DNA from: a virus
Strand: one strand, 5' to 3'
DNA: 64,000 nt
IMG/VR virus record: IMGVR_UViG_3300009964_000001
Span: 86,602-150,601 of that record
Part shown: piece after piece, positions 218 through 61,286 of the stretch
How the letters are laid out: each line of letters starts with the position of its first letter
Position numbering within the stretch: the stretch's first letter is position 1
The notes under the pieces: generated by a model
Seen by the model: the letters and a program-made list of their open reading frames with translations, nothing else
Told to the model about the DNA's origin: nothing
Database searches by the model: none
Made by a program: the position numbers and the translations under genes

Positions 218-1003
218 ATGCAGACTTATCTCGATTTGCTTAAGTATGTTCTCGAAAATGGAACTGAGAGAACAGATAGAACTGGGACTGGGACAATCTC
301 CGTGTTTGGTCATCAAGTGGAATATGACGTAAGTGAAAAATTCCCAATTCTCACCACGAAGAGAATTCATATGAGAAGCGTCATAATGGAACTTGCTTGG
401 ATGCTAAAAGGTGATACCAACGTGAAGTTCTTGAGAGACAATGGTGTGACCATTTGGGATGAATGGGCAGACGAAGAAGGAAACCTCGGAAAGATCTATG
501 GAAAGCAATGGAGAGATTTCGGAGGTGTTGATCAGATTCGGGATATCATCGATCAGATTCGGAACAACCCAGATTCACGGAGAATAATCGTCTCGGCTTG
601 GAATCCTGCAGAACTCTCGGAAATGGCACTTCCTCCGTGTCATTGTTTCTTCCAATTCTACGTTGAAGGTGATCGACTTTCACTGAAGTTGTATCAAAGA
701 TCTGCTGATCTCTTCTTGGGTGTTCCATTCAACCTTGCTCAATACTCACTCTTGCTCTATATTGTTGCAAAGATCTGTGGAAAGAAACCTCATAGATTTA
801 TCCACTCGTTTGGAGATCTTCACATCTACAAGAACCATTTAGATCAAGTAAAGCTACAGCTTTCGAGAAAACCATACGAACTCGCAGAGATAAAGATCGT
901 GGGAGATATCGACATCGACAACATCTCCGAAAATCTCATCGATCAAATCGTTATCGAGAACTACAAGCATCATCCATCGATCAAGGCGGATGTGAGTGTA
1001 TAA
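218..1003 (+). CDS. thyA: Thymidylate synthase
   Basis: Hallmark motifs [17 protein letters not shown] (catalytic Cys), DLFLGVPFN; 261 aa; uninterrupted (no intron). Confidence 0.95.
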
Positions 1004-1982
1004 AACAGATCAAGCTATGCAGAAGAAACTAAAAGTGGAATTCGTCGCATATATCGACAAGTCCTTGTGCGTCAACGACTACATCAATCCGTTCACAGAC
1101 GAGAAGTACAGAGAATCACTGAGAGATCTCATAAACGATGGTGGAGGTGCAATCATAGTGATGGACGGAGAATACTTCGAAATGATGGAAAGATCAAACT
1201 TTAGAGTTCCATCAATCGTTCTCTTTGACTATGAACATGAAGACACTAAAGATACGAAGTTCATCTATTCATATGAACAACTTTGTGATTTCCTCAGTTG
1301 TAGAAACGAGAAGGTCTTCGTGATTGGTGGATTTGACGCATGGTCATCGCTTGTCCAGTACGTTTCCAAAGTTCACTTCCTCGTCACCGATGAAAAATGG
1401 GGTGATGGGATGACAAGACCATTCTTGTTCGACGTTCGAGAAATGTGCAAAATAACAAGCTATTCAGAACTCGCCAACGGAATAACTCATCAAGAATACG
1501 AATTCCGTGAAGACGTTGTTATTTGTAATGGCGATATCGACAAGGACATGGAAGATGATGGCGATGGTGTTTGTTGTGGATGTGAACTCTTCTGTCAGGG
1601 CATTATTTCACATATCAACTTCGAAGGTGAACCTGTCGACAGAATACTTTCGAATGGGTTATCAACCTTGATAGAAAAAGGTGATAAATTAAAGATAGTC
1701 ACAGATTTCAAGATCTACAAAACACCCTCAAATATCAAGATCAATGTTACACAAAGCCATCATTCCAGAGTTCTTGATCTTGTTATAGAATCGTGTGAAA
1801 TCATAAACGGAAGCATCGTTATTACTCTCGTTAACAGGTTATCACATTACACAGTCTTAGACTATAAGAAAGTGATTGCTGTTGTGTATGCAACTGGGAA
1901 CTACAAACTTCTACGTTGTAATAACGATTTCTCAGAGAGCATGGAGATGGGAAAATGGGGAACTGAACTAACCAAACATTAA
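996..1982 (+). CDS. Divergent DHFR-like N-domain fused to dUTPase-like beta-barrel C-domain (paralog 1 of 3)
   Basis: N-half aligns to DHFR ([14 protein letters not shown] ~ VIMGRKTYESI; [14 protein letters not shown]...[16 protein letters not shown] ~ VFVIGGAxxY...LTxIxxxxEGDTxFP); C-half has dUTPase-like [26 protein letters not shown]. Confidence 0.5.
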
Positions 1983-2011
1983 TAATCATAATCACAAGCA
2001 TAAACGAAAAG

Positions 2012-3064
2012 ATGAAGAACAAGACCGAAATCGAAATGATCCTATTCGTCAATGACAAAGGTAGGACAATCAACGCCCAGAAGCTACTCTCTTCTCCCTC
2101 TGAAAGTGATCTCCGAGACTATATCGGAAAGATCACGACTGGGAACATCATCGTCTTTGATGAGGACACGTGTTCCACTCTCATATCACCACTTCCAAAC
2201 CGAATCTGTGTTGTCATCACCTCGAACAAAGACTTCAATCGAGAAGGGTTTGTTCGTGCAGAATCTATACGAGATTTCATCGACATGCTCGGCACGAAGT
2301 TCGACAGATATCGTGATGTTTACGTAATGGTCGACAACATCCACATAGCAAGAAGTTTCATGGGTTATGTCGATAGAGTAAAGATGGTGGAAGTCGAAGG
2401 AGCAGAATCTCACGATAGATACGAACTTTCTGACATTCCTCGAAAGACTATCCTCGATATTCGAAGGTCGACGAACGTTGCGAATGAATATTGGATCAAC
2501 GACTTTATCAATACCACTGACCACGAGTTCAAAGACAACGTCCTAATGTGTACAGCAAGTGTTGATGGCTTTGGCTGTTATGGTGTCTGTGCACGAGAAC
2601 CAAGGGTTCATGTCAACGGCTTTGGTGAAACTGTGAGAAGAAAGTCTGATCATCGTGAATCCATAGTTTTGCACAAGGGCGACGGAGTTTTCATGAAGAC
2701 TGATATCGAGATTTACAGAATCCCCAAGAACGTTTATGTTGAAGTCAAGACAATCTTACACTACTTTGTCTATAACGGAATCTCGATAGAATCATCAAGT
2801 ATTACTGATGGCGTTGTCTGTGTTGGTCTTGTAAACATGGGATCGAAACCTGTCACTATACACAAAGATCAGACGATTGCTGTGTTGGCTATTAGAGGTG
2901 AACACGAGTTCTTGAAAGTGGCACATAAGGAATTCCCATGTGAAAAAGTCGATGGTTGGGACAACTACGAAAGCAAAGAAGATCGTCGTCGACCATTAAA
3001 AGACGAACGTTGTATTGGCAACGATGGTGGTGACATGTCGGAATGTTGCTGTGATGGCTTTTAA
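2012..3064 (+). CDS. Divergent DHFR-like N-domain fused to dUTPase-like C-domain (paralog 2 of 3)
   Basis: IVFDEDTCSTLISPLPNRICVVITS and DVYVMVDNIHIARSF...VEVEGAESHDRYELSDIP resemble DHFR blocks; C-term VVCVGLVNMGSKPVTIHKDQTIAVLAI resembles dUTPase motif 3/4. Confidence 0.5.
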   Translation: MKNKTEIEMILFVNDKGRTINAQKLLSSPSESDLRDYIGKITTGNIIVFDEDTCSTLISPLPNRICVVITSNKDFNREGFVRAESIRDFIDMLGTKFDRYRDVYVMVDNIHIARSFMGYVDRVKMVEVEGAESHDRYELSDIPRKTILDIRRSTNVANEYWINDFINTTDHEFKDNVLMCTASVDGFGCYGVCAREPRVHVNGFGETVRRKSDHRESIVLHKGDGVFMKTDIEIYRIPKNVYVEVKTILHYFVYNGISIESSSITDGVVCVGLVNMGSKPVTIHKDQTIAVLAIRGEHEFLKVAHKEFPCEKVDGWDNYESKEDRRRPLKDERCIGNDGGDMSECCCDGF

Positions 3065-3075
3065 TAGAAGAATCG

Positions 3076-3954
3076 ATGATGAAAGTAAAGTTCATAGCAA
3101 GTGTTGATAAGAACTTCGCTGTTGGAAACGACGGCAAACTTCTATTCAGAATCCAAGAAGATATGAAACTGTTCCGTGAGATGACGATGGGGAATATTGT
3201 CATCATGGGCAGAAAGACATACGAAGAGATCGGAAAGCCACTTGAAGGAAGACTGAACATTGTCCTATCCCGAGATGACATTTCTATTGGAGGTGTTCAT
3301 GTGTTCAAGTCAATGGAAATGCTCAAAGCTTTCTGTGAATCTTCCACAAATCGACAAAAGGATGTGTTTGTGATTGGTGGTGCGGAAATGTGGAATCTCT
3401 TCAGAAGATATGTTTCACAAATCCACCTCACGAAAGTTCCAGATGATTGTCCCGAATACGACACCGTCTTCCCTTATGATCTTCTTAATGCTTTCACACT
3501 CGTTCATCGAAATCAGATCGGCTTCTATGAAAAGAACTATCAACCGATTGTTCACGAAGTTTATGATCGTCTGGGAGATGTGGTGGTGATGAATCGCAAG
3601 ACCGAAGAACTCTTGGTGGCCAGATTTGTTGATGTCTTGGAACACGTAGGTGGTAGTGGTGACGATATAAAAACTTATCGAGAAAATGACATGCTACTAA
3701 TGACGAACGACAGAATTGCTGTAAAGACTGATCTTCGTGTTTATGAACTTCCTCTTGGAACTCTTGTTAGTGTGAACGTCGTGCCGTCATTGTTCATGGA
3801 TAATGGACTGATGATTGCGGGGTGGGATATCGTCGACGACGATTTCATCGTCTACTTGACATTGACTGGGAAGAAGCCTATTTCTCTGAAACGTGGTGAT
3901 ATCATAGCAGATGTCAACTTCTATTCTCGTCATCCTCTGATGTACGCCCCTTAG
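3076..3954 (+). CDS. frd: Dihydrofolate reductase with C-terminal dUTPase-like extension (paralog 3 of 3)
   Basis: Canonical DHFR blocks: IASVDKNFAVGNDGKLLF, IVIMGRKTYEEIGKPLEGRLNIVLSR, VFVIGGAEMW, LTKVPDDCPEYDTVFP; then about 125 aa with TDLRVYELPLGTLV...AGWDIVDDDF...ISLKRGDIIADV (dUTPase-like). Confidence 0.85.
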   Translation: MMKVKFIASVDKNFAVGNDGKLLFRIQEDMKLFREMTMGNIVIMGRKTYEEIGKPLEGRLNIVLSRDDISIGGVHVFKSMEMLKAFCESSTNRQKDVFVIGGAEMWNLFRRYVSQIHLTKVPDDCPEYDTVFPYDLLNAFTLVHRNQIGFYEKNYQPIVHEVYDRLGDVVVMNRKTEELLVARFVDVLEHVGGSGDDIKTYRENDMLLMTNDRIAVKTDLRVYELPLGTLVSVNVVPSLFMDNGLMIAGWDIVDDDFIVYLTLTGKKPISLKRGDIIADVNFYSRHPLMYAP

Positions 3955-3967: not shown

Positions 3968-4183
3968 ATGGATAAAAAGTACAGCGGTTATATCGTGATG
4001 AGTGATGGCTTGTTATCACCAAACGATGAGATCTCGTACAATGGTGACGTTTTCACGTATCTTGGGAAAACACTGAGTAAATCAAGCGGTGAACTTTGTG
4101 GTGTTTTCACAAATGGTAAAACAGAATGTTTTATCCCAGTCAGATTCATAAGAAGTATGAAGGACAAGAAGCTCGTGTACTAA
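3968..4183 (+). CDS. Hypothetical small protein
   Basis: ORF only. Confidence 0.3.
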   Translation: MDKKYSGYIVMSDGLLSPNDEISYNGDVFTYLGKTLSKSSGELCGVFTNGKTECFIPVRFIRSMKDKKLVY

Positions 4184-4374
4184 GAGAAATACTCTCCTTG
4201 GCTCTCCTTGGCATTTCCCTTGATTTCTGAACTATTCAAAGATATGAAAGCCTTCGAAAGTGGTTTTGAGATCAAGGGAAATACGTCTCTTGAAATCGTC
4301 TTTGTCTATTGAATCATAATCAATCCTCATATGATAGGAACTGTGGACATTAACAAAAAGCAAGAAGAATAGCA

Positions 4375-5100
4375 ATGGACATTATCAAAAATCTCGGTTA
4401 TAACCAACACGAGATTCTCGACAACATTCAGAAGTTGTACCTCGAAGGAAAGGGGATCGAATGTGACATCACTTATTCCAAAGGCGCATTCTACGGAAAG
4501 TTCAAAGTAAAAGACGCAGATGGTGAAGCACGTGATATCGTCATTGAGCAACCTCGACTGAAGTTCGATGTTTTCCCACTTTCCGAAGATGTCACAAAAA
4601 TAGAACCACTGACGGCACTTCCTCTCGATGATCTTTCGATCGAATCGATGATGATCGATCTGCCGTTCATCGTCAGACCAACAAAGCCAGATACGTCAGT
4701 CACTGATGAAACTGGGTCGAAGATGTTCAACAGATTTCAAGGTTTCCACACTCCAGACGACATGTATGAAACGTACTGGTTCTGGATCAATGAAGCCTAT
4801 CGTGTCTTGAAGGTCGGTGGAACGCTTTTGTTCAAGACACAGAACACGATTTATGGCGGTATCAACCACAACACTGAGTTTTTCTCATTCATGTGTGCCG
4901 AGAAAGCTGGATTTGTCACAGAAGACACCTTCGTTCTTGGCGCAAAGTCTCGCATGATCTCACCATTTATGACCAAGCAGTTACATGCTCGAAAGTTCAC
5001 CTCGACCTTCTTCGTTTTCAAGAAGCATAAATCTCAGAAGCACAAGAAGTTCAACTATTGGTCATTAATCCCAAAGCTTGAAGAATCTTTCAATAATTAA
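4375..5100 (+). CDS. Hypothetical protein (weak methyltransferase-like segment WFWINEAYRVLKVGGTLLF; no DPPY/FxGxG motifs)
   Basis: 241-aa ORF in operon context between frd and nrd; function not assignable. Confidence 0.5.
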   Translation: MDIIKNLGYNQHEILDNIQKLYLEGKGIECDITYSKGAFYGKFKVKDADGEARDIVIEQPRLKFDVFPLSEDVTKIEPLTALPLDDLSIESMMIDLPFIVRPTKPDTSVTDETGSKMFNRFQGFHTPDDMYETYWFWINEAYRVLKVGGTLLFKTQNTIYGGINHNTEFFSFMCAEKAGFVTEDTFVLGAKSRMISPFMTKQLHARKFTSTFFVFKKHKSQKHKKFNYWSLIPKLEESFNN

Positions 5101-5118: not shown

Positions 5119-7161
5119 ATGTCAAAATCAGAAATCGCTAACGAGTTCTTAAGTGATCTCGTCGTGCATTCGAAGTATGCGAACATTGTCCCAGAGGAAC
5201 ATAGAAAGCAGACGTGGGAAGAATGTGTAGCAGAACTGGAGAAGATGTTCATCAATGATTATCCTCATCTTGAAGGAGAAATCCGTGAGAACATGAAGAT
5301 GGTGTACGCCAAGAAGGTGTTCCCATCAATGAGATCGATCCAATTCGGTGGTCTTCCTATCTCATATAACCCAACACGAATCTACAACTGCTCTGCACTT
5401 CTTCTCAACAATACAAAGTGCTTCTCGGAGATCATGCACATTCTCTTGAGTGGGACTGGAATCGGTGTTTCTATCCAAAAGCGACATATCAACAACCTAC
5501 CAGTGGTCAAGAAGCCATCAAAGAAGAAGCGTTTCCTCATCTCGGATTCTATCGAAGGTTGGGCAGATGCCGTTCGCATGCTCTGCTACTCTTATCTTCG
5601 TGGGAATCCTTATCCAGAGTTCGACTATCGTGACATTCGCCCAAAAGGATCGATCATCAAGAAGCTGAACTGCTATGCACCAGGTCATGAAAGACTCAAG
5701 AAGTCAATCGAACAGATCGACAAGGTCTTCAAGACTGCCGTAGGTCGAAAGCTCACACCTCTTGAATGTCTTGACATCTCTTGCTTCATTGGTGATGCCG
5801 TGGTAAGTGGTGGTGTGAGAATGGCTGCAATGATCATGTTCTTCGACAAGGATGATGAAGCAATTATGACTGCAAAGTCAAACGTTCCACTTCGAAGTGC
5901 AACAGTAGAATCGGAAGATGACAAGAACTGGTACATCAGAGTAGAACCGAAGAACATCGACGACTTCTATGGTGATGAATCTCGAATGCTAACTGTTCGC
6001 AAGAAGTTCGGTGACTTCGACAACTCTTGGGACTACGACAACATCTGCAAGAATCTCTCGGCAAGTTGGTACTACGTGCATCCTCAGCGAGCAATGAGTA
6101 ACAACTCTGCCGTGCTTCATCGTGATACCACCACACGTGAGGAACTCGAGAAGCTGATGAGAATTGCAGATGCTAACAAGTCTGGAGAACCAGGTCTCTT
6201 CTGGACGAACGATTATGACATGATCTCGAACCCATGTGGTGAGATTGCACTCAACGATTGTCAGTTCTGTAATCTTTCGACGATTGTGGCATATGACATA
6301 ACAACTCAAGAAGAGTTCAACCATCGTGCAAGAGTGGCATCATTCCTTGGAACTCTCCAAGCAGGTTACACCGACTTCCACTATCTCCGCCCAAAGTGGA
6401 AGGAACAGACCGAAAATGAAGCACTTCTCGGTGTATCTTTGACAGGTATTGCATCGGGAACTATTCTTTCTCTCAATGAAACTGAAGCTGCATTGTGTGC
6501 AGTGGAAGAAAACAAGAGAGTGGCAAAACTGATCGGTGTAAATGAAGCACAAAGAGTCACCACGATTAAGCCCGAAGGGACATCGACGATCGTTGCTGGT
6601 GTGTTCGGAAGTGGGATTCATTCTGCTCATGCGGAATATTACGTTCGTAACATCCGAATTCTGAAGTCTGATCCAGTTTACACTTATCTGAAGATCAACG
6701 CTCCAGATTTTCTCGATGATGAATATTCCGATAAGGATAAAGCCGTGTTCTCTGTTCCAATGCGTGCAAACCACGATTGTATCTTCAGAACGGAATCGAC
6801 GTTCGACCTCCTCGAGAGAATTAAGAGATTCAACGAGAATTGGATAGCACCAGGTCACATCTCTGGAGCAAACAAGCACAATGTCTCGTCGACTGTCTAT
6901 GTCAAAGATGGTGAGATCGATAAGGTCATCGAATGGATGTGGGACAATCGCAATTCCTACTCTGGTCTCACGATTCTCCCCTTCGATGGTGGTACTTACA
7001 AGCAAGCACCATTCCAAGATATCACCAAGGAAGAATATGAAGAGATGCTCGAGAGATTCCCAACTGATCTCGACCTTTCTAAGGTTTATATCGAAGACAT
7101 CAAGACTACTCAGTTTGAATACGCTTGCGCAGGGGGTGCTTGTGAAGTGAAGTCCGTTTAG
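5119..7161 (+). CDS. Ribonucleotide reductase catalytic subunit, NPCGE-type (class II NrdJ-like)
   Basis: 680 aa; active-site NPCGEIAL...CNLST; C-terminal Cys pair ACAGGACEV; typical RNR length. Confidence 0.8.
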   Translation: MSKSEIANEFLSDLVVHSKYANIVPEEHRKQTWEECVAELEKMFINDYPHLEGEIRENMKMVYAKKVFPSMRSIQFGGLPISYNPTRIYNCSALLLNNTKCFSEIMHILLSGTGIGVSIQKRHINNLPVVKKPSKKKRFLISDSIEGWADAVRMLCYSYLRGNPYPEFDYRDIRPKGSIIKKLNCYAPGHERLKKSIEQIDKVFKTAVGRKLTPLECLDISCFIGDAVVSGGVRMAAMIMFFDKDDEAIMTAKSNVPLRSATVESEDDKNWYIRVEPKNIDDFYGDESRMLTVRKKFGDFDNSWDYDNICKNLSASWYYVHPQRAMSNNSAVLHRDTTTREELEKLMRIADANKSGEPGLFWTNDYDMISNPCGEIALNDCQFCNLSTIVAYDITTQEEFNHRARVASFLGTLQAGYTDFHYLRPKWKEQTENEALLGVSLTGIASGTILSLNETEAALCAVEENKRVAKLIGVNEAQRVTTIKPEGTSTIVAGVFGSGIHSAHAEYYVRNIRILKSDPVYTYLKINAPDFLDDEYSDKDKAVFSVPMRANHDCIFRTESTFDLLERIKRFNENWIAPGHISGANKHNVSSTVYVKDGEIDKVIEWMWDNRNSYSGLTILPFDGGTYKQAPFQDITKEEYEEMLERFPTDLDLSKVYIEDIKTTQFEYACAGGACEVKSV

Positions 7162-9568: not shown

Positions 9569-10990
9569 ATGAAAGCCAAGAAGCATCAAGTAGGCATGTT
9601 CGATCACATGTTCGAAAAGGGAAAGATCACGTTCTTGTTGGATGGTTATTCCGCAGGTTCATCTGGCAAAGGCAAGTGTGAATCTCTCATCGTAAAGAAC
9701 ACATCGTTCGGCACTGGGGATAAGCGTCTTGCAGTCTGTACCACGAACTCTGCAAATGCATCGCATTGGGTTTATGATGACGGCAAGAAGATGATGTTCG
9801 AAGTACTGCCTTCATCGGCTTATCTTCACGAAAAGCTCGAGTTCGTCGCTATCGGTCATGGTGCATCATTCTCCGTAGAAAGACTCTTCGAGGAAATCAA
9901 GATGAGTGGTCTTCCTCTCGATAAGCTCTTCATCCATCCCAAGGCAGGGATCATCACCAAGATCGATGAAGACTACGAAAAGGGTCTTTGTGATATCGAC
10001 GGCAACTATGGTTCATCCGATCACGATGGTACAATCGCAGGCGGATCTACTTGCTCTGGATCTGGTGCAGTTCGAGCAAAGAAGGTCGTAAGAAACAAGA
10101 CAGTGACTTATGCTTATCAAGTCCCAGAACTCAAGCAGTTCATCTGTGATGTCGAGAAGCGTCTTATGACGTTTATGCTTAACGGAGGATCAGTTCTTCT
10201 ACAGATTGGTCAAGGTTTCCCACTTTCGTATGGTCTCGGCTATAACAAGCAGAACTCAACAAGTCGAAACGTGACGATCAGTGCAGCTTTGGATGACATG
10301 AATCTTCCTCCATTTTTCGCAGGTGATGTTATCTTGAATGGTAGAACTTATCCGATCAAGATCAACAACAAGAAGTATCGTCTTCTCGGTGGGAAGCCAG
10401 TTGTCCGTCTTCACAAGAACTCGGAATCGACACTGAAGTATTATGCTCATAAGCATCTGTTCGACTTCATCGAAGGAGATGATCACGTTTCTATCGTCAC
10501 ACGTAAGGAATTCATTAACTTCTACGAAATGCGTGAGTTCCCCTACCTTGAATACGAGGTTATCGAATCGTTCAGTGGTACTGGCTATTCTCCAATCTGG
10601 AACGAAGAAAGTCACCAGCGAGAAATCACGTGGGAAGATGTCGAAAAGAACTATGGGAAGACGATTCCAGATGATGTAAAGTGCACGTCACTTACCAAGC
10701 TCCCTCGAAGAGTCTTTGAGTTTGATAAGAGCCTTCTGCACGACGGCATTCTCTACAATCTTTCTCCAAATGGCAAAACTCACATTGTCATCAACTTCGT
10801 CAACTGGGTAGATGGTGAAATGGACGGAGAACGTGAGAAGATCACGGAGAAGATAGAAGATTGGCTCTCCAAGAACATGTTCGCAGAAATCGACACTATC
10901 AACAAGCTGGTGGGTGATGAGAAGAAGGTAATACTTTCTGTACTCGGGACTGGTCGTGAATCCGACGACTTTGTCGCTGTAGAAGAGTAA
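9569..10990 (+). CDS. Adenylosuccinate synthetase (PurA)-family enzyme with variant P-loop; PurZ-like candidate
   Basis: Blocks align to PurA: LLDGYSAGSSGKGK (PurA GDEGKGK), NSANASHW (GGHNAGHT), GGSTCSGSGAVRAKKV (GTTGRGIGPAYEDKVAR), QIGQG (EGAQG); 473 aa. Confidence 0.8.
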   Translation: MKAKKHQVGMFDHMFEKGKITFLLDGYSAGSSGKGKCESLIVKNTSFGTGDKRLAVCTTNSANASHWVYDDGKKMMFEVLPSSAYLHEKLEFVAIGHGASFSVERLFEEIKMSGLPLDKLFIHPKAGIITKIDEDYEKGLCDIDGNYGSSDHDGTIAGGSTCSGSGAVRAKKVVRNKTVTYAYQVPELKQFICDVEKRLMTFMLNGGSVLLQIGQGFPLSYGLGYNKQNSTSRNVTISAALDDMNLPPFFAGDVILNGRTYPIKINNKKYRLLGGKPVVRLHKNSESTLKYYAHKHLFDFIEGDDHVSIVTRKEFINFYEMREFPYLEYEVIESFSGTGYSPIWNEESHQREITWEDVEKNYGKTIPDDVKCTSLTKLPRRVFEFDKSLLHDGILYNLSPNGKTHIVINFVNWVDGEMDGEREKITEKIEDWLSKNMFAEIDTINKLVGDEKKVILSVLGTGRESDDFVAVEE

Positions 10991-11938: not shown

Positions 11939-13276
11939 ATGTATACGAGAATATTTTCACCCCAATCAAATCAAGAAATGTCAAGGAACGTATCTCCTCT
12001 CGATCACAGGTATGCTGATGTCATACAGAACATGTCGAAAGTCTTTAATTCCGAAAGGTACTACAAGACGATGTGGAATGTAGAAGTCGAATACTTTCTT
12101 TACTTCTTAGAAAAGTTTGTACACCGAGAAGTGGACGGAGACCTCATAAGAAACAGTTGTAAGTTCGACAGTCTTGTCTACAACGAGATAATCTCCGAGG
12201 AAAGTGTAACACGGCACGATGTCAAGGCAGTTATCAATGTCTTACAGAACAAACTGGTCTTCCTTGAGAAATCTCAGAAAATCGAGAAAGTGTCGGTTTA
12301 TGTCCATTTCGGACTGACTTCCCAAGACATTGTTTCGTTATCGATGTCTATTCTCATGTCGGAAGCCATTGAAGTCATTGATCATGTCGTCAACTACACG
12401 GAAGCCATTCTCACAAATCTTCATCGAGAGACGAAGGATGTTTGGTCTCTATCAAGGACTCATGGACAATCTGCAGTTCCCCATCTTTTGAAAGACGACG
12501 TTTATAAGTGGAGGTACGATGTCTTGAAGTTTAGACGGCATATTGTCTATGATGTAGTCAAGTTCTCTGGGGCAGTTGGTAACAACTTCGCAATTTCGAG
12601 ACTTTTCAACATGGACGCTCGGAGAGTTGCGGAACTCATGGATTCGTTTGTGAAGAAGTTCGGAAGATTCACTGTTAGTGGAGAAGAATCGACACAAACC
12701 GACAGATGGGAATCGTTCTGTCAGAGATTTTCTGATTGGAATCTGGCCATTTCAAGGATCATCAGTGATGTGCAACAGATCTGGCAAATGTGCTCGGATG
12801 GTTATTTCAAACTGAAAGTGGACGATGGCTATTGCGGATCTTCGGCAATGCCACACAAGATCAACCCTATCAAGTTTGAAAACGCAGAAGGATGCTTCTG
12901 TAGATGTCAGAAAGACTTCGAGTTTTATATTAGTAAGTTATCGAAGTCAAGAATGCATCGTGATCTGTCGGATTCAGTGGTTATAAGAATGATCCCCGAG
13001 ACGTTGTCTTATCTTTATCTTGGATTCTCGTCGTTTGTAAGTGGTCTGAAAGCACTTGAGGTGAATACCGAGAAGATAAAAGACGACCTCGAAGAGAACT
13101 ATCAAGTGTTCTCCGAAATCGTACAGCTCTATCTGAAGTTGAAGGGAGATGAAGACGCATACGAAGAATCAAAGCGTGTGTTTAGAGGAAGCTCGATGAC
13201 ACTCTACGACTTCAAGAAAGCTATCAAAACTCTCGGTATTGAGTACGATGAAATCAAGAAGTTTATAGAACTTTAG
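11939..13276 (+). CDS. purB: Adenylosuccinate lyase
   Basis: Fumarate-lyase signature GSSAMPHKINPIKFENAEG (E. coli PurB GSSTMPHKVNPIDFENSEG); 445 aa. Confidence 0.85.
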   Translation: MYTRIFSPQSNQEMSRNVSPLDHRYADVIQNMSKVFNSERYYKTMWNVEVEYFLYFLEKFVHREVDGDLIRNSCKFDSLVYNEIISEESVTRHDVKAVINVLQNKLVFLEKSQKIEKVSVYVHFGLTSQDIVSLSMSILMSEAIEVIDHVVNYTEAILTNLHRETKDVWSLSRTHGQSAVPHLLKDDVYKWRYDVLKFRRHIVYDVVKFSGAVGNNFAISRLFNMDARRVAELMDSFVKKFGRFTVSGEESTQTDRWESFCQRFSDWNLAISRIISDVQQIWQMCSDGYFKLKVDDGYCGSSAMPHKINPIKFENAEGCFCRCQKDFEFYISKLSKSRMHRDLSDSVVIRMIPETLSYLYLGFSSFVSGLKALEVNTEKIKDDLEENYQVFSEIVQLYLKLKGDEDAYEESKRVFRGSSMTLYDFKKAIKTLGIEYDEIKKFIEL

Positions 13277-15186: not shown

Positions 15187-15645
15187 ATGGATGAAAAAGT
15201 AAAAGAATACGAGCAATTTGTCGTTTCTTGCTTCAACGAGAATCCTACAAATAACAAGGTTCTCGACTTCATTCACATGACAATGGCACTTATGTCAGAA
15301 TCTGGTGAATTTGCTGATATAGTCAAGAAGGCGGTGTTCCATTCTAAGGAGATCTCGAAGGTTGATCTTGTAGACGAACTCGGTGATGTTCTGTTCTATT
15401 TCATGAACATTTGTCATTTCCTTGGTGTCACGATTGATGATGTCATGGAAGCAAACCTCATCAAGATCCGTGAAAGATATCCCGAAGGTCGTGGTAAGAA
15501 CTATAACTTCGGTACACGTAATAAGGCAGAAGAAAAGAAGAGAATAGAACAATTCTTGATGAAGATAAAGCAAGACGTGTCAATCGATATCAATATCAGC
15601 CAAATCAGCGGACATCAACATCAGTCTCAACACATAGGAAAGTAG
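15187..15645 (+). CDS. mazG: MazG-like nucleoside triphosphate pyrophosphohydrolase
   Basis: ESGEFADIVKK...ELGDVLFYFMNICHFLGVTIDDVMEANLIKIRERY matches MazG/NTP-PPase helix motifs (E..E...E..D). Confidence 0.8.
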   Translation: MDEKVKEYEQFVVSCFNENPTNNKVLDFIHMTMALMSESGEFADIVKKAVFHSKEISKVDLVDELGDVLFYFMNICHFLGVTIDDVMEANLIKIRERYPEGRGKNYNFGTRNKAEEKKRIEQFLMKIKQDVSIDINISQISGHQHQSQHIGK

Positions 15646-19193: not shown

Positions 19194-20690
19194 ATGATCA
19201 ATTGTAAACAGATCAGAGACAAGATGTCGGTGTCTTATTTCGACGAAAACGGAAACATTGCGATATCTGACATAACAATAGACGATCGTGAAAAGTACGT
19301 ATGGACAAAGACAACCGAAGATGACAAGTTTCGAGACAAGACTTACGTATCTCAAGACGGATTCCCTGTGAAAAAAGAACGTAAGTCCTATCTCGACAAA
19401 TATCGCAAGATCGAGTTCTTGCTGTCTCTACCAGAACGTTTACAAGCGAAGATTTTCTCAAACAATCAGCCACGTAAGTTCTTCTGGGATATTGAAACAG
19501 AAGTTTTTGATGACTTCCCCGATGCTGGGAATCCTGTTGGGAGAATCTTCACGCATCAGTATTGTGATGAGTTCGGCAATGGTACTGTCATGGGCATCAA
19601 GCCACTTTCACAGACACAAATCGACTCTATCGAACAGAAGATCAACGACTATCTCTCACAGATCACCGATAAGACGCTTCATCAGAGATATAAGTTCCGT
19701 TACATTTACTACCCCGATGAGTTCACGATGAACAAAGACTTCGTCGAGAATCATGCAACAAAGATGCCGTGTATTTTCGGATGGAACGTGCTGAAGTTCG
19801 ATACAAGATACCTCGTCAACAGGTGTAAAAAGACGAACATTGATCCTACAATTCTCTCACCAAAGAGAATGCTTTACTCGACGATTGCGAAAGATAAGTT
19901 CGACCATTCATCGAAAATTGAAATCGAACTTCCTCTTCATCGACCAATCATCGACTACATGCAAATCTTCGAATTCTTTGATAGATCGATTAAACAGAAG
20001 TCATCAATGTCGCTCGATTTCATCGCATCAGAAATCCTTGGTGTCAAGAAGATCCATCATTCCGAAACTCTGATGGAACTCTATGAGAAGGACTATGAAC
20101 GTTACGTGCTTTATGGTATCATCGATACGTTCCTCGTGGCATTGATCGACAAGAAGTGTAGAACATTTGAATCAATGAGCGTTCTTGCAAATCTCCTACG
20201 TGTCGAAGTTGCACAGTCTATGTTCGTTAGTGTCGGGATCGAAACACTCTTGTGTGACTACTATTACAAGCATTACAACAAGGTGTTTGTAAAGGACTAT
20301 GACAAGCAGATTCCCGAAGGTGAAACTTATAGCGCAGGATTCGTTCTACAACCAGGTATTGGTGTTTATGATGGTATCGTCATCTATGACTACGAATCAT
20401 TGTTCCCTTCAATCATGCAGATGTTGAACGTCGGTGAAGATGTTTACCTCGGTCATACCGATGATCAAGGGAAAACCTACGTGGACAAACTCGGAGAAGA
20501 ACACGAACTTGACGAGACGATGTGCTATTCATCCAGTGGTGCAGTTTACTCGAAAAACAGAGATTCCGCAATTCGAACGATGATTTCGAACATGTTCAAT
20601 AAACGAGTAGAAGCAAAACACAAGGAAGCAGAAATCAAAGCAGATATTAATCACTTAAAGCAGATATTAAAAGATAACTTCGGACATTAA
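19194..20690 (+). CDS. Family-B DNA polymerase, N-terminal part only (3'-5' exonuclease domain + motif A)
   Basis: Exo I FWDIETE, Exo II GWNVLKFDTRYL, Exo III YVLYGIIDT, motif A DYESLFPSIM; ORF stops about 90 aa after motif A, motifs B/C absent. Confidence 0.8.
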   Translation: MINCKQIRDKMSVSYFDENGNIAISDITIDDREKYVWTKTTEDDKFRDKTYVSQDGFPVKKERKSYLDKYRKIEFLLSLPERLQAKIFSNNQPRKFFWDIETEVFDDFPDAGNPVGRIFTHQYCDEFGNGTVMGIKPLSQTQIDSIEQKINDYLSQITDKTLHQRYKFRYIYYPDEFTMNKDFVENHATKMPCIFGWNVLKFDTRYLVNRCKKTNIDPTILSPKRMLYSTIAKDKFDHSSKIEIELPLHRPIIDYMQIFEFFDRSIKQKSSMSLDFIASEILGVKKIHHSETLMELYEKDYERYVLYGIIDTFLVALIDKKCRTFESMSVLANLLRVEVAQSMFVSVGIETLLCDYYYKHYNKVFVKDYDKQIPEGETYSAGFVLQPGIGVYDGIVIYDYESLFPSIMQMLNVGEDVYLGHTDDQGKTYVDKLGEEHELDETMCYSSSGAVYSKNRDSAIRTMISNMFNKRVEAKHKEAEIKADINHLKQILKDNFGH

Positions 20691-20956: not shown

Positions 20957-22546
20957 ATGAACGCTGTAGACATTAAAAGCGGATCAGAAGCCAGAGAACT
21001 GATCCTTATTGGTGCAAAGAAGATCCATGACGCTGTAGGATCAACACTGGGACCTGGTGGTCGAAATGTCATCATCAAGCACAACACGTACGATGTACCA
21101 CAGGTCACTAAAGATGGTGTGACTGTAGCAAGAAAGATGAAGCTACAGAACTATTGGCACAACATTGGCTGTCAGCTCGTAAAGCAGGCATCAATGCGAA
21201 CAGCAGTTGATGCAGGTGATGGAACAACTTCCTCTGTCGTCATGGCGTACACGATGATGAAGCTGATCGATGAACTTCTTGAGGAAAATCCTGATATCGA
21301 TGTTCACCGACTTCGTCATGAGATGGAGAAGATGAAAGATGTCCTCATTGAACGACTTCGGGAAATCTCCACACCAATCGTTGATATTCAGCAGGTGTTC
21401 GATATTGCAAAGATCTCTACGAACAACGATGAGAAACTTGCAGGGTTACTTTCCGAGATTTATGGGAAGATTGGTAAAGATGGGATAATCGTTCTCGAAC
21501 AATCACAACTTTCGAATATCACCTATTCGATCGAATCTGGATTCCGATTTGACGGAGGATGGCAATCTCACTATTTCGTAAAGGACAAGTCAAAGATGTC
21601 GTTCGAATCTGACGATTGTGCAATCTTCATCACAAATCACAAGATCCAAGACGGCAAGACAATGCTGAATGCGCTTTCAAGGATCTACGGCACAGGTGTC
21701 CGTGATCTACTGATCATTGCGGAAAATATCGAAGGTGAAGCGTTATCGACTTTGATCGCCAATAATCAGAGTGGAAAGATGAACATTTGTCTTGTCAATC
21801 CTCCGTATTATGGACAGAAGCGTGAAGAATACCTCACTGACCTCTCCATTTCGCTTGGTATGAAGCCACTTATGGTGGGAGATCAGTCCGTGTCACCTCT
21901 CTCGTTTACAGAAGAGTACTTCTCTTGCGGTCGAAGCGTCTTTGTGGATAAAAGCACCACGACGATCAGAAATGACAAGGAAAGTGTATCGTCTGCAGTC
22001 GAAGAGCATATTTCGAATCTGAAGTCTCTTATGGATTCTGAAGATGAAGACAAGGAATGGATCGAAAAGAGAATAGCGACCTTAAGATCATCAGTTGCCG
22101 TCATAAAAGTTGGTGGTAATTCTGAATCTGAGGTTTATGAACACAAGGACAGACTTGAGGATGCGATTTGTGCTATAAGATCGGCATACAAGGACGGCAT
22201 AGTTGCAGGTTGTGGCATTACGTACATACGACTAATCTCTGCGCTTGATCCTTCTCTTGACACGTTCCATATCTTGAAATCTGGACTTGAATCCGTGTTC
22301 AAGAAGATAATGGACAACTCGTGCATATCAGAAGAAGAAAGATCATCGATTCTCTACTTTGTTGCCGAAGATGAAGGATACGGTTATGATGCCAAGAAGC
22401 GTGAGAAGTCGTACAATTCGATCAGAGATGGTATCATTGACTCGGCACGTGTTATAAAAAACTGTATCGAGAATTCGATATCTGTCGCTATCATGTTCAT
22501 GATCTCTGACAACATAGTCATGGAAATCGATGAATCGATAATCTAA
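20957..22546 (+). CDS. groEL: Chaperonin GroEL (Cpn60)-like
   Basis: AVGSTLGPGGRNVII, DAGDGTTSSVVMA (GroEL AGDGTTTATVLA), 529 aa. Confidence 0.85.
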   Translation: MNAVDIKSGSEARELILIGAKKIHDAVGSTLGPGGRNVIIKHNTYDVPQVTKDGVTVARKMKLQNYWHNIGCQLVKQASMRTAVDAGDGTTSSVVMAYTMMKLIDELLEENPDIDVHRLRHEMEKMKDVLIERLREISTPIVDIQQVFDIAKISTNNDEKLAGLLSEIYGKIGKDGIIVLEQSQLSNITYSIESGFRFDGGWQSHYFVKDKSKMSFESDDCAIFITNHKIQDGKTMLNALSRIYGTGVRDLLIIAENIEGEALSTLIANNQSGKMNICLVNPPYYGQKREEYLTDLSISLGMKPLMVGDQSVSPLSFTEEYFSCGRSVFVDKSTTTIRNDKESVSSAVEEHISNLKSLMDSEDEDKEWIEKRIATLRSSVAVIKVGGNSESEVYEHKDRLEDAICAIRSAYKDGIVAGCGITYIRLISALDPSLDTFHILKSGLESVFKKIMDNSCISEEERSSILYFVAEDEGYGYDAKKREKSYNSIRDGIIDSARVIKNCIENSISVAIMFMISDNIVMEIDESII

Positions 22547-45108: not shown

Positions 45109-46731
45109 ATGACTAAGATAAATGAAGGTCTTCTCAACAGAGTGGTCAATGAACACTCTTCTAAGTTGAGAAAGCTGTTTAAGGACAGAGGTTATTCTGT
45201 CAATGAGTCTCGACTTCGTGATATCGCACTCATGGCTCACACCAGAAAGATTTACGAAAGTGCTTCTAATGGTGCTAATGTCCCAGGTCGTGGTGCATTC
45301 TCATTCGGTTCTGCAACTGAACGTGGTTCTGCAGAAATGTTCGACAGACTGTTTACGGTATTCGTAGACACTGCAGCTACTAACGTTGGTTTCGACCTCC
45401 TGCACGTAGCTCCTATGACGAAGAGCAACATCACGATGGTTGTCGCAGAGCCAGTTTACGCTGGTGGTAAGAAGGAATCTGCAAATGGTAATCACCTGCA
45501 GGTATTCCAGATCAAGGCAAAGACCACGACGAGTGCTGATCCTCTGAAGGTAGGTACGAAGTACGAAATCAAGGAAACTGGTGGTGCTACGAAGGTTGCT
45601 GAAGTCAAGTTCATCGGTATCCATCAGTACAATGGTAATTTCATCTTCGACCTCGTAAGTGTTGAAGCTACCCACAAGGACAAGGTTCTTGCAGAAATCC
45701 TTGAAAACGCAGAAATCACCTCGGGTAGCGGTAAGTGGGTTCTCAGTGGTAACACTGTCGACTACGTAAACGGCTTCACGAACTTCATCGCTGGTTTCGC
45801 AGGTTCTGGTCTTCAGAACAACGATCCTTTCCACGTTGGTCGTAACAACGGCAAGTCCCTGTTCAAGCCAATGTCACGTGAAGTTGGTGAAACGCAGGGT
45901 GCTCGTACTCTCGGTACTAAGATGTGGAACAGAACGTTCTCTGCAGAAACCTTCCACGTTGATCTTTCGCTGACCACTGAGCAGATTCAGGATGCTCGTA
46001 TGGATCACGACTTCGACATGCTCGAATTCTCTGAAGAAATCATGAAGAATGACCTCGATCAGTCTATCAACGATCACATTCTTTCTATGATCTTCGCTTC
46101 GGGTTGGGATCACCACGTTGCTATCAACAAGCTCTCCAACATCAACCTCAACGCAAACTTCGGTACTGGTACTGGTGCAACGCAGGAATTCGTTGGTCTT
46201 GATGGTGAACTCAAGCAGATCTCTGGTGCAACCTCTGTTCTCCCTGCTGTTGGTGCAATCGCAGAAAACCTTTCCACCCTGCAGAAGAGAATCATCACGA
46301 GAATGTTCTTCGCTTCTACGATCATCAAGAATCGTGGTCGTGTAGGTGCAGGTAACACCGCTGTTGTCAATGGTACGAACTCTACGGCTATCCGTGATGT
46401 CCGTGGTTTTGCTATCGCTCCATTTGAAAACACGCTTCAGACGCAGTCTTCCCTCGCCCACCTCGGTCAGTTCTACGGAATTGATGTCTTCGAAGATGGT
46501 CTGATGGATCTGAACGACTGCCGTGTAGCTGTCTTCAACAAGGGTGGTGAAAAGACCCCAGGTCTCGCATTCTGCCCATACATCCTCGGTGAAAAGGTAG
46601 AAACCGTCGCTGAAGGTACGATGGAGAAGAAGTTCAGACTTAAGTCTCGCTACGTCATTGCTGAACGTGGTTCTCACCCAGAAGCTCAGTACATGACGTT
46701 CGTCGTAGAAGGTAGCGACAAGCTCGTCTAA
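45109..46731 (+). CDS. Major capsid protein, T4 gp23-like
   Basis: VGFDLLHVAPMTKSNITMVVAEPVY (gp23 IAFDICGVQPMNSPTGQVFALRAVY); 540 aa; late-promoter motif CCTAAATAACGAAA upstream; strong terminator downstream. Confidence 0.75.
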   Translation: MTKINEGLLNRVVNEHSSKLRKLFKDRGYSVNESRLRDIALMAHTRKIYESASNGANVPGRGAFSFGSATERGSAEMFDRLFTVFVDTAATNVGFDLLHVAPMTKSNITMVVAEPVYAGGKKESANGNHLQVFQIKAKTTTSADPLKVGTKYEIKETGGATKVAEVKFIGIHQYNGNFIFDLVSVEATHKDKVLAEILENAEITSGSGKWVLSGNTVDYVNGFTNFIAGFAGSGLQNNDPFHVGRNNGKSLFKPMSREVGETQGARTLGTKMWNRTFSAETFHVDLSLTTEQIQDARMDHDFDMLEFSEEIMKNDLDQSINDHILSMIFASGWDHHVAINKLSNINLNANFGTGTGATQEFVGLDGELKQISGATSVLPAVGAIAENLSTLQKRIITRMFFASTIIKNRGRVGAGNTAVVNGTNSTAIRDVRGFAIAPFENTLQTQSSLAHLGQFYGIDVFEDGLMDLNDCRVAVFNKGGEKTPGLAFCPYILGEKVETVAEGTMEKKFRLKSRYVIAERGSHPEAQYMTFVVEGSDKLV

Positions 46732-56629: not shown

Positions 56630-56951
56630 CGTATACGGAAAATCTTCGATTTATCTAAACGAAAGGCGACAACCCGATTAAAGAGTTATCACCTTTTCGC
56701 TAACAACAAAAAAGTGGTGTCATATGTGATGTTGTCACTCATTGATTCGAACAAAGACTAACAGAGCCAAGGTCTGTTGTGCTACCATTACACCAAATGA
56801 CAAGGCGAGCACCTTTTTCTGCATAAGCGAGATTAAGGTAGTGCTCATGAGTAGTGCCCCCATGAAGAGATCGCACCACAACCTCCCGATCACCGCTTTT
56901 GTAGCAAGCCCATCGAGTGTCCCTCTGCTATCTACATTCAAGGGACTGGTG

Positions 56952-57026
56952 GGTGATGGATGGGACTTGAACCCACAACCAATAGAACCACAACCCATTG
57001 CTCTGACCAATTTGAGCTACCATCAC
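56952..57026 (-). tRNA. tRNA-His (anticodon GTG), no encoded G-1
   Basis: Cloverleaf folded by hand from reverse complement: acceptor GTGATGG/CCATCAC, D GCTC/GAGC, anticodon stem ATGGG/TCTAT (2 GU), loop TTGTGGT, T-arm GTGGG-TTCAAGT-CCCAT, discriminator C. Confidence 0.6.
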
Positions 57027-57124
57027 AGACGTAGTGAGAGGTTTCGCTCCTCTGAGTATCTTCATCAAGAAGCACTACGTTTAATAAAAATGTGGGGGGG
57101 AAAGGTGGCGAGTTGTCCATACTC

Positions 57125-57200
57125 TTCTCAGTCGGGTAGGATTCGAACCTACATCATTTAAGAACCACCTTATAGATTCCGATCATTCTACAGATTTTTT
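57125..57200 (-). pseudogene. tRNA-like fragment (intact T-arm GTAGG-TTCGAAT-CCTAC, no complete cloverleaf found)
   Basis: GGATTCGAACC on plus strand; acceptor/D/anticodon arms could not be closed. Confidence 0.25.
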
Positions 57201-57213
57201 AACACGTAGACTG

Positions 57214-57435
57214 TACGATAATGAAGATTCTTGCTGAATATCTACAAATCAGAAACTATGATTGATAACCGTTTAGATGTCTACAGACAGTGCCGACAGG
57301 AGCACCAAGCCATTAACCGTAAAATTTTCAATGCTATAAATCTGTAATCTAAACGGATGTTTCGTCGAAATCTTTACTACAGACGGTCTATGAGCCAATT
57401 ATGAAGATTCTGTTTGCTGTATGTCTATAAATCTC
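57214..57435. repeat. Two copies of ~40-nt direct repeat (ATGAAGATTCT[T/G]..GCTG.ATATCTA(C/T)AAATC) plus TCTACAGA motifs in tRNA-cluster spacer
   Basis: 57214-57250 and 57393-57435. Confidence 0.5.
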
Positions 57436-57552
57436 GACATTGAGAATTCTTTAAAAGAACGCTTTTGTTTTGATGACTTCCCAGTGGACTACGTAATTTT
57501 TAGGAGCAATTGCGATATCTTCTTGCTGTGAATCCAAAACATCATCATTTTG

Positions 57553-57637
57553 AGGAGAGAGTGGGATTCGAACCCACGGATCGTTTCCGACCTTCAGTTT
57601 TCAAGACTGATGCGATAGACCGCTCTGCCATCTCTCC
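57553..57637 (-). tRNA. tRNA-Ser (anticodon TGA), type II with long variable arm
   Basis: Acceptor GGAGAGA/TCTCTCC, anticodon stem TCAGT/ACTGA loop CTTGAAA, variable arm GGTCGGAAACGATCC, T-arm GTGGG-TTCGAAT-CCCAC. Confidence 0.8.
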
Positions 57638-57996
57638 AACGAGTTTTTTACTTATCCAGAGAGGTTGGTGGAGCATCACTATAAATCCTAAACGCTCTCT
57701 CAATCTACCCACAGCCGTATCATCATCATGGTTCAAACCACTAGGGATTTTAGCTTCTCCGATGAGGGCTTTGTCGCTCTGTACAAGAGACTTTTCTGAT
57801 AATCTTACACGCTACCAAGGTTGTTCTTTACCTATCGACCTATAGCCCCATTAATCAAAGACCAAGTCGAGCGATAGAGTTGTTGTTCAATATCACGATA
57901 CCTTCAAGAAAATCCCAACTCTATAAAAGACTTCTTAAAGATAGCTACTGTGTATCTTTTCAAGTAGCCTTCAAGTCGCTTTTCTTTTTATTTTTG

Positions 57997-58080
57997 TAGA
58001 GGTGGTAGGACTCGAACCTACGAAGCCTTTTAAGACGAGTGATCTACAGTCACTTGCAATTGCCACTATGCGACACCTCT
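57997..58080 (-). tRNA. tRNA-Tyr (anticodon GTA), type II
   Basis: Acceptor AGAGGTG/CACCTCT, D GCA-TAGTGGCAAT-TGC, anticodon AGTGA-CTGTAGA-TCACT, long variable arm, T-arm GTAGG-TTCGAGT-CCTAC. Confidence 0.8.
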
Positions 58081-58097
58081 GTTTCTTTTTATTTTTG

Positions 58098-58169: not shown

Positions 58170-58241
58170 TTATCTTATTATTTGATCTTCCTATCGGTTT
58201 CGTTTCCTTCTTTTTATCATCGTTGATCTCTATTGATCAGA

Positions 58242-59207: not shown

Positions 59208-59252
59208 GTTTTAATTATTCTTCTGTTTGGAGACATGTGCATGGAAGACTTA

Positions 59253-60233: not shown

Positions 60234-60246
60234 GTTGTTGATATTT

Positions 60247-61263: not shown

Positions 61264-61286
61264 GATTGTTCATGATTTTTCTTGAG

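Follow-up and report, generated by a model that had tools for sequence, protein, structure and literature searches.

In this study, we analysed a 64,000-nt window of the genome of an uncultured ~150-kb phage and found, directly 3′ of thyA, three tandem genes (P1, P2 and P3), each joining a dihydrofolate reductase (DHFR) domain to a β-barrel of the dUTPase fold whose catalytic residues have been replaced. Our searches found no earlier description of the DHFR and dUTPase folds fused within a single protein, and none of a phage that keeps three such fusions, two of them apparently dead in both halves. The reading that we favour, tentatively and with a probability of about 40%, is that P3 is an active DHFR carrying its barrel as an assembly module, while P1 and P2 are its pseudoenzyme partners in a thymidylate-synthesis complex.

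The thyA gene (218–1003) and the four ORFs that follow it lie on the plus strand. Its product scored 375.8 bits with the Pfam thymidylate synthase (TS) model PF00303 (Thymidylat_synt) and 400 bits with the NCBIfam TS equivalog (cut-off 327), and its position is unchanged in five related loci (L001 to L005). The gene has a stop codon of its own at 1003, and P1–P3 contain no TS domain. Their ORFs run from 996 to 1982 (P1, 328 aa counted from a GTG), from 2012 to 3064 (P2, 350 aa) and from 3076 to 3954 (P3, 292 aa); since P1 orthologues begin with MQKKL.VEFVAYV, P1 most likely starts at the ATG at 1017 and not at the GTG at 996. The intergenic gaps in thyA-P1-P2-P3 are only 11–29 nt, which is consistent with co-expression of P1–P3 with TS, the enzyme that generates the dihydrofolate that DHFR must recycle. 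A sigma-70 promoter scan gave fewer matches than shuffled sequence; the host is probably a gut member of the Bacteroidota, which would use a different promoter type. Judged by the capsid, the phage's nearest relatives in culture infect Flavobacterium, Tenacibaculum and Prevotella.

Pairwise BLASTP linked the N-terminal halves of P1 and P3 (E = 3.6e-9) and of P2 and P3 (E = 2.4e-5), as well as the C-terminal halves of P1 and P2 (E = 5.7e-14), P2 and P3 (E = 9.7e-13) and P1 and P3 (E = 4e-4). Judged by these scores, the paralogy of the three genes is well above chance, and the matches in both halves point to triplication of the entire two-domain gene. The coordinates, the identity of thyA and the BLASTP results thus agree with the initial annotation, which had described three tandem paralogues of a DHFR plus dUTPase-like barrel after thyA.

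The N-terminal domain of P3 (3076–3576) is a canonical DHFR, which scored 126.7 bits with Pfam DHFR_1 (PF00186; gathering score 25) over profile positions 2–159 of 159 and matched the solved Bacillus anthracis DHFR 3jw3 at E = 3.8e-25. In the numbering of what we take to be the E. coli DHFR reference sequence, D27, F31, L54, R57, G43-R44-x-T46, G95-G96 and T113 are kept in 10 out of 10 P3 orthologues, the deviations of P3 being M20L, P21L, W22F and Y100W, of which the last two are unusual. The dN/dS of this domain is 0.057, and it is probably a working dihydrofolate reductase (EC 1.5.1.3). The corresponding domain of P1 (1017–1511) also belongs to the DHFR fold and is predicted to be catalytically dead; it carries the substitutions D27S (27/27 sequences), R57V/I, R44G, T46Y/M, T113L and W22E and retains, among the cofactor and catalytic positions, only I94-G95-G96 (the IGG loop) and R52. 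That of P2 (2012–2533) exceeded the DHFR_1 gathering score (31.8 bits against 25) and matched PHROG 316 at E = 4.5e-6, and a P2-family profile searched against solved structures returned only DHFRs, 37 sequences in all (best E = 1.7e-8). On its folate side the domain retains D27, L54, R57 and T46, but the NADPH motifs are lost, with G43-R44 changed to D-E (12/12) and G95-G96 to D-N (11–12/12), in addition to T113V, F31I and W22S. The residues lost therefore differ between P1 and P2. The Pfam scores and the residue-by-residue comparison bear out the earlier proposal that canonical DHFR blocks are confined to the third gene and support the view that the upstream two, DHFR folds nonetheless, are non-catalytic.

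The C-terminal domains of P1 (1512–1982, with a Cys-rich linker before the barrel and a disordered tail after it), P2 (2534–3064, with an acidic Cys-rich tail ending in SECCCDGF) and P3 (3577–3954, 125 aa) are jelly-roll β-barrels of the dUTPase/DCD superfamily, and structural comparison confirmed the likeness to dUTPase and dCTP deaminase barrels that had been supposed from motifs. This kinship is visible solely by family-built profiles or structure. Searches by plain sequence gave no match for the barrels in Pfam (E ≤ 10), PHROGs or PDB sequences; this includes PF00692 (dUTPase, EC 3.6.1.23) and PF22769 (DCD), the latter unmatched even though dCTP deaminases are among the top structural matches; distant relatives (P0034 and P0036 to P0039) do pass the Pfam dUTPase/DCD models. 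The barrel of P2 is the most conserved of the three (dN/dS 0.10) and was matched by a small dUTPase HMM at E = 3.6e-11; besides P2 and P3, that HMM found no other dUTPase in the window, which holds all but ~86 kb of the genome.

What the barrels share, namely a GD turn, a T-D...Y strand and an I-A strand, is the structural core of the dUTPase fold and not its ligand contacts. In E. coli Dut numbering, R71 and S72 of motif 2 are replaced by V/I/N and P/L/H, D90 and Y93 of motif 3 by W/S/C and V/T/S, and R116 and Q119 of motif 4 by I/T/V and D/I/V; this mapping comes from one hhalign alignment, in which a shift of ±1 is possible at motif 3 of P3. Motif 3, the uracil/sugar-gate hairpin, also has a five-residue deletion, and D32 of motif 1 is replaced in all three families, just 5 out of 10 P3 orthologues still having it. 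The motif-2 Arg/Ser, the motif-4 Arg/Gln and the P-loop-like motif 5, the arm of which is missing from P3, were absent from all 49 sequences examined. By these residues, all three barrels are catalytically dead as dUTPases. The segment G..VNxGxKPVxIxKGDxIAxL, which had been likened to dUTPase motifs 3 and 4, does correspond to the part of dUTPase that begins with the strand following motif 3 and runs on to include motif 4, but the functional residues are not those of a dUTPase; TDLRV, taken for motif 1, instead lines up with the T53-G54 strand in the conserved core of E. coli Dut. A bifunctional DHFR-dUTPase in the ordinary sense is thus contradicted by the residues. Each barrel does keep a terminal β-strand after the motif-4 strand (PLMYAP, HEFLKV and YKLLRC), which we take to be the strand that is swapped between subunits in trimeric dUTPases.

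Three pairwise comparisons gave dN/dS values of 0.12–0.26 per gene and below 0.32 for every domain, so that P1–P3 are functional genes and all six domains are under purifying selection. For P1 and P2 the values were 0.15–0.26, with synonymous sites near saturation (dS ~1.1–1.9), and 3–6 times those of thyA or the ribonucleotide reductase gene. More than 100 columns of P2 are invariant across 12 orthologues, and the triplet after thyA is kept in 9 of 11 loci, the most divergent lineage included. Two loci, on contigs of 150 and 146 kb, have independent in-frame deletions in P1/P2 (L003, corresponding to window positions 1170–2485, and L005, 1153–2813), each with P3 intact.

Under the favoured reading, P3 would regenerate tetrahydrofolate for the adjacent TS as the phage's working DHFR, and its dead barrel would have been retained for non-catalytic roles, such as self-assembly into trimers and possibly docking of partner enzymes. 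Judging by the fold, trimers of the barrel would yield a multivalent DHFR particle; some dUTPase-fold proteins, such as the EBV dUTPase and the herpesvirus dUTPase-related proteins (DURPs), are monomeric. P1 and P2, as pseudoenzymes dead in both domains, may join or modulate the assembly as mixed oligomers through their barrels and act as scaffold or regulatory subunits of the thymidylate-synthesis complex. P1 and P2 would be accessory, not essential, since P3 persists in natural variants that have lost them. A stricter version, in which a 1:1:1 P1-P2-P3 heterotrimer held together by the dead barrels presents one live and two dead DHFR lobes and docks TS, either to channel dihydrofolate or to have DHFR controlled through dead lobes that bind folate or nucleotides, appears distinctly unlikely. 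The folate-side residues kept by P2 and the NADPH-loop glycines kept by P1 form the basis of the dead-lobe idea; yet an obligate heterotrimer predicts that no natural P1/P2 deletion variants should occur, and these exist. If true, it would make the particle a viral metabolon of a novel type, in which a recycled enzyme fold serves solely as the hub of assembly.

Several observations fit other explanations. The WD(I/V)VDD cluster conserved at the motif-3 position of P3 orthologues, in which a one-residue shift would put an Asp on the catalytic D90, and the conserved GETVRRKS of the P2 family, with its invariant basic V-R-R-K-S near the motif-1 position, hint at ligand binding more than at pure scaffolding. 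The barrels might then have kept the ability to bind a pyrimidine nucleotide (dUMP, dUTP or dCTP), acting as allosteric sensors that couple DHFR/TS output to the nucleotide pool or using a non-canonical catalytic site, and together the genes would specify a truly bifunctional complex of nucleotide metabolism. That dUTPase, TS and DHFR perform consecutive steps, that the genes abut thyA and that the window holds no canonical dUTPase elsewhere would suit such a role, but we consider it unlikely: the phosphate-binding Arg/Ser and the other missing residues were lost throughout the sequences examined, Tyr93 and part of the gate hairpin are gone, around motif 1 the P3 orthologues are hypervariable and carry indels, and neither the Pfam dUTPase nor the DCD model matches. 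Moreover, the dut search covered the 64-kb window, with ~86 kb of the genome outside it, and a MazG pyrophosphohydrolase gene at 15187–15645 could cover dUTP clearance.

The higher dN/dS of P1 and P2 relative to their neighbours is as compatible with a conflict-type or relaxed function as with scaffolding. They may have been recruited outside thymidylate synthesis, for host take-over, anti-defence or as decoys, with the DHFR and dUTPase shells serving as protein-binding surfaces; dUTPase-fold proteins are known to moonlight in this way, as in the staphylococcal phage Dut that de-represses SaPIs and in the herpesvirus DURPs. Such recruitment seems unlikely, given that P1 and P2 match no anti-defence or other functional family in Pfam or PHROGs, that their place in a thyA-DHFR operon and the architecture common with P3 point to a shared context, and that whole-gene dN/dS gives no sign of positive selection. 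The same relaxed constraint, together with the loss of catalytic residues from both domains, the different sets of DHFR residues lost by P1 and P2 and the two independent deletions, would be expected of P3 duplicates with little or no function that are heading for loss. We rank such decay low because of the dN/dS values, which were obtained across lineages with near-saturated synonymous sites; the intact frames, the invariant columns of P2 and the retention of the triplet even in the most divergent lineage also speak against it, and useless DNA is quickly purged from phage genomes. Least probable is a place in the virion. For T4 Frd and Td a baseplate role has been proposed in the past, and the initial annotation raised one for these genes; this finds no support here, the genes being in a thyA/methyltransferase/ribonucleotide reductase block ~27 kb from the baseplate gene.

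The arrangement differs from known systems in several respects. In the bifunctional DHFR-TS of protozoa and plants the partner of DHFR is TS, whereas here it is a dead dUTPase-fold barrel, TS is encoded by a separate upstream gene, and the fusion is triplicated with two copies dead. From homotrimeric dUTPase (Dut) and DCD the phage barrels differ in the replaced residues of motifs 2, 3 and 4 and in the absence of motif 5; in addition they fall below all Pfam thresholds and are fused to DHFR. The herpesvirus DURPs (such as MHV-68 ORF10 and HCMV pp71) are tandem-duplicated monomeric barrels of eukaryotic viruses without DHFR fusion or thyA linkage, and they have no specific sequence relationship to the phage barrels. 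T4 Frd is a single-domain protein encoded by one copy, without a dUTPase-fold appendage, and the T4 dNTP-synthesising complex is a non-covalent association of active enzymes. Precedents for pseudoenzyme partners are the 'prozymes', such as the trypanosomatid AdoMetDC prozyme, and for heterotrimers of three paralogues the crenarchaeal PCNA1-3. By analogy, P1 and P2 resemble prozymes in being apparently dead paralogues under selection beside an active one, and P1–P3 resemble PCNA1-3 in being three paralogues, here of a fold that is normally trimeric; a difference is that natural variants without P1/P2 exist.

The architecture appears to be confined to one clade. Searched as DNA at near identity, the region matched none of 50,697 records of cultured phages; tblastn of these records with the P2 barrel likewise gave nothing at E ≤ 1, and a profile search of 1.8 billion protein representatives together with an IMG/VR scan returned only this clade and no ancestral single-copy form. 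A literature search found no published DHFR-dUTPase-fold fusion, in keeping with the earlier remark that no such family is known. Xanthomonas phage XacN1, which appeared as a second fusion in tblastn with full-length P3 (92% query coverage), was a read-through artefact: its DHFR is followed in the same frame by a separate 190-aa ORF with two H-x-T motifs typical of 2H phosphoesterases and no dUTPase barrel. In Erwinia phage AH06, the ORF matched by tblastn with P3 is a long 'DHFR' whose extension is a different one and lies at the N-terminus.

The thymidylate pathway has DHFR and dUTPase among its textbook enzymes. Should the barrel serve as an assembly hub, these genes would clearly exemplify how a virus can turn a trimeric enzyme fold into a scaffold that organises nucleotide synthesis, and they would offer a tractable model of phage pseudoenzyme evolution, with the natural deletion variants as ready controls. 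If the dead copies act on the host, viral dUTPase-fold moonlighting would extend from SaPI induction and herpes DURPs to phages probably infecting gut Bacteroidota. As for annotation, such proteins now either go unnamed or simply bear the label 'dihydrofolate reductase'; P1 and P2 should be left out of any count of DHFR activity.

At the end of the tightly packed thyA-P1-P2-P3 block lies a small conserved ORF of 71 aa (3968–4183), whose membership in the P1–P3 system is uncertain. It has no match in Pfam or PHROG; its dN/dS is 0.17, and counterparts of 61–72 aa occupy the equivalent place in four related loci (L001, L003, L004 and L005). A weakly terminator-like hairpin (4272–4293) is located 3′ of this ORF.

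In the window, thyA (218-1003, 261 aa), whose product reaches 375.8 bits with Pfam Thymidylat_synt and 400 bits with the NCBIfam thymidylate synthase equivalog (cut-off 327), is followed by three genes sharing one orientation, P1 (996/1017-1982), P2 (2012-3064) and P3 (3076-3954), whose ORFs are separated by 11-29 nt. Beyond them lie a conserved small ORF of 71 aa (3968-4183), a DNA methyltransferase gene (4375-5100) and a class II-like ribonucleotide reductase (RNR) gene (5119-7161). P1 is likely to start at ATG 1017 rather than at GTG 996, because its orthologues open with MQKKL.VEFVAYV. Pairwise BLASTP of the separate halves gave E-values of 3.6e-9 (P1 vs P3) and 2.4e-5 (P2 vs P3) for the N-terminal halves, and of 5.7e-14 (P1 vs P2), 9.7e-13 (P2 vs P3) and 4e-4 (P1 vs P3) for the C-terminal halves. 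The similarity in both halves indicates that P1, P2 and P3 are whole-length paralogues and that a gene already consisting of two domains underwent triplication.

The N-terminal half of P3 matched Pfam DHFR_1 from end to end (126.7 bits) and the solved Bacillus anthracis DHFR with an E-value of 3.8e-25. That of P2 also exceeded the Pfam threshold (31.8 bits vs 25), and a profile built from 12 P2 orthologues had 37 matches, all of them solved DHFR sequences, in keeping with the initial annotation, which had taken this upstream copy for a DHFR homologue. Key residues, in E. coli FolA numbering, were tabulated for 27 P1, 12 P2 and 10 P3 sequences. All 10 P3 orthologues keep D27, F31, R44, T46, L54, R57, G95-G96 and T113, and P3 departs from FolA at M20L, P21L, W22F and Y100W. 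P1 keeps I94-G95-G96 and carries D27S, W22E, R44G, T46Y/M, R57V and T113L; P2 retains D27, L54, R57 and mostly T46, with G43-R44 replaced by D-E and G95-G96 by D-N. By these patterns P3 alone has the look of an enzyme, and the DHFR domains of P1 and P2 have decayed in a complementary manner, different residues being lost in each. The earlier view that canonical DHFR blocks occur in the third gene only is confirmed by catalytic and NADPH residues that are complete in P3 and partly replaced in P1 and P2.

Single barrel sequences, used as queries, had no match in Pfam (at a limit as loose as E<=10), in PHROGs or among PDB sequences. The AlphaFold2 model of the P3 C-terminal half (125 aa, alignment of 11 sequences) was confident (pLDDT 81.9, pTM 0.76) and nearly all beta. 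Its top Foldseek match among viral predicted structures was its own orthologue, UniProt A0A8S5VTG7, labelled 'dihydrofolate reductase, Ackermannviridae sp.', and all named matches below it but one were dUTPases. An HMM of the P3 barrel, run against 1.84 billion representatives, found extra-clade proteins at E-values of 3e-5 to 1e-3 that exceed the Pfam dUTPase threshold. Alignment of the barrel family with these proteins and E. coli Dut by hhalign covered 98 columns (97.2% probability, E 3e-11), a figure that is somewhat favourable because the comparison alignment consists partly of proteins picked by similarity to the query; the structural result is free of that bias. AlphaFold2 with Foldseek, HMM and hhalign thus agree on the proposed likeness of the C-terminal halves to the dUTPase barrel. 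The structural interpretation first given, three tandem two-domain DHFR and dUTPase-like paralogues after thyA, proved essentially correct, being borne out by ORFs, BLASTP, profiles and the fold model. No description of a fusion of DHFR with dUTPase or a 'dUTPase-like' domain was found in the literature searched, and this is a new domain architecture made from two known folds. It is relevant to the fields of phage nucleotide metabolism and pseudoenzymes and settles no long-standing question. The representative search also yielded P0037 (149 aa), a stand-alone dUTPase-family protein above the Pfam threshold but lacking motif 5; as its motif 3 carries the same short deletion as the phage barrels, it may be an evolutionary intermediate.

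Catalytic residues were mapped by laying the hhalign alignment over 49 family members. Those of E. coli Dut are replaced in the barrel family as follows: R71 by V/I/N/S, S72 by P/L/H, D90 by W/S/C, Y93 by V/T/S, R116 by I/T/V and Q119 by D/I/V. Five residues are deleted from motif 3, among P3 orthologues the region of motif 1 is hypervariable and has indels, and the Gly-rich C-terminal motif 5 is absent from all 49 proteins. What the barrels of all three paralogues have in common, a GD turn, a T-D...Y strand and an I-A strand, is the structural core of the fold. TDLRV, previously assigned to motif 1, aligns instead with the T53-G54 strand of E. coli Dut; VNxGxKPVxIxKGDxIAxL does match the motif-4 region, as proposed, but without its Arg and Gln. 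Judged by sequence, the barrels are pseudoenzymes and not dUTPases in the enzymatic sense. The P1 linker (1530-1620) contains the Cys-rich VCCGCELFC, and the P2 tail (2990-3064) is acidic and Cys-rich, ending in ...SECCCDGF (...EDDDF in relatives); the P2 family also conserves C-Y-G-V-C-A-R-E-P. The P2 tail has the appearance of a docking peptide or of a metal site.

The family is restricted to a clade. A search of 5.8 billion proteins gave ~25 P3-type, ~35 P1-type and ~14 P2-type clusters, many members being carried by contigs of 144-151 kb; only four full-length 50%-identity clusters occur among the 1.84 billion representatives, and six IMG/VR loci carry the family. The barrel was present in none of 50,697 records of cultured phages. 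Xanthomonas phage XacN1 was rejected as a full-length fusion, the match being a read-through into an adjoining 2H-phosphoesterase-like ORF. This ORF185 (2071-2643 of the XacN1 locus, L006), directly 3' of the DHFR gene and annotated as hypothetical, has two H-x-T motifs (HCT, HAT), a pair typical of 2H phosphoesterases. The order thyA-P1-P2-P3-small ORF-methyltransferase-RNR is unbroken in nine related loci (L001, L002, L004 and L008-L013). In two others, both on near-complete contigs, independent in-frame deletions have fused P1 with P2, so that the initial ~46 codons of P1 run on into the end of P2. In L003 (150,036-bp contig) the missing stretch is window 1170-2485, and its fusion gene (L003 5001-5747) codes for a stand-alone P2 barrel, P0001; L005 (146,054-bp contig) lacks window 1153-2813, and its fusion gene (L005 5001-5387) codes for a 128-aa stub, P0029. 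P3 is intact in both, as is the P2 C-terminal tail; P1 and P2 therefore appear to be dispensable, and P3 is kept throughout.

Nei-Gojobori dN/dS between the window and L001 was 0.26 for P1, 0.17 for P2 and 0.12 for P3, compared with 0.075 for thyA and 0.04 for the RNR gene; single domains of P1-P3 gave 0.06-0.32, and two more pairs with the most divergent locus, L004, gave 0.15-0.25. P1-P3 are under purifying selection, though with a constraint 3-6 times looser than on the metabolic genes beside them. That P1 and P2 are redundant copies in slow decay seems quite improbable. Our preferred reading, tentative at a probability of about 0.4, is that P3 would be the phage DHFR serving the adjacent thymidylate synthase, that its dead barrel would be retained for a non-catalytic property of the fold, assembly and/or docking, and that P1 and P2 would be accessory pseudoenzyme subunits. 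Assembly is proposed because nearly all enzymes of the dUTPase-type fold are trimers. The barrels might instead retain nucleotide binding or perform non-canonical catalysis, which we consider unlikely. The Asp of the conserved W-D-I-V-D-D in P3 would fall on D90 given a one-residue alignment shift, and an invariant V-R-R-K-S adjoins motif 1 in the P2 family, so that some residual ligand binding is conceivable. Recruitment of P1 and P2 to a host-directed or anti-defence role, which would liken them to staphylococcal phage Dut and herpes DURPs, is doubtful as well, and a role of P1-P3 in the virion is very improbable.

The window also codes for DNA polymerase, SSB, primase, a UvsX-like recombinase, a baseplate wedge protein, a head protease, a capsid protein and a GroEL-like chaperonin (20957-22546; PHROG 5725, E 1e-114), and a minus-strand cluster at 56731-62026 comprises six tRNA genes (Gln, His, Ser, Tyr, Met, Lys) interspersed with ORFs of that strand. 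The closest cultured relatives of the capsid protein (45109-46731) are from phages of Flavobacterium (39.5% identity), Tenacibaculum, Prevotella (Lak) and Chryseobacterium, and no Shine-Dalgarno motif was found 5' of the starts at 218, 1017, 2012, 3076, 4375 and 5119, where leaders are A-rich; the host is therefore probably a member of the Bacteroidota, although one orthologue bears the UniRef label 'Ackermannviridae sp.'.

No further dUTPase-like gene was detectable within the 64-kb window, and a MazG pyrophosphohydrolase is encoded at 15187-15645. Near it are an adenylosuccinate-synthetase-like gene, with close scores for PurZ (85 bits, cut-off 300) and archaeal-type PurA (82 bits), and a gene for a PurB-like adenylosuccinate lyase (267 bits); this purine-type group (9569-10990, 11939-13276 and 15187-15645) could represent a 2-aminoadenine (Z-base) or other purine pathway. 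The family B DNA polymerase seems to be encoded in two pieces: the gene at 19194-20690 aligns with no more than the N-terminal half of the PHROG model (12-496 of 856), and in relatives a separate PF00136 gene of 400 aa lies ~4 kb upstream of thyA (L005 1-156), a position that would precede the window start. The RNR resembles the adenosylcobalamin-dependent RTPR-type class II enzymes only below threshold (211 bits, cut-off 340). Among its closest phage homologues, some carry the annotation 'recombinase', apparently in error.
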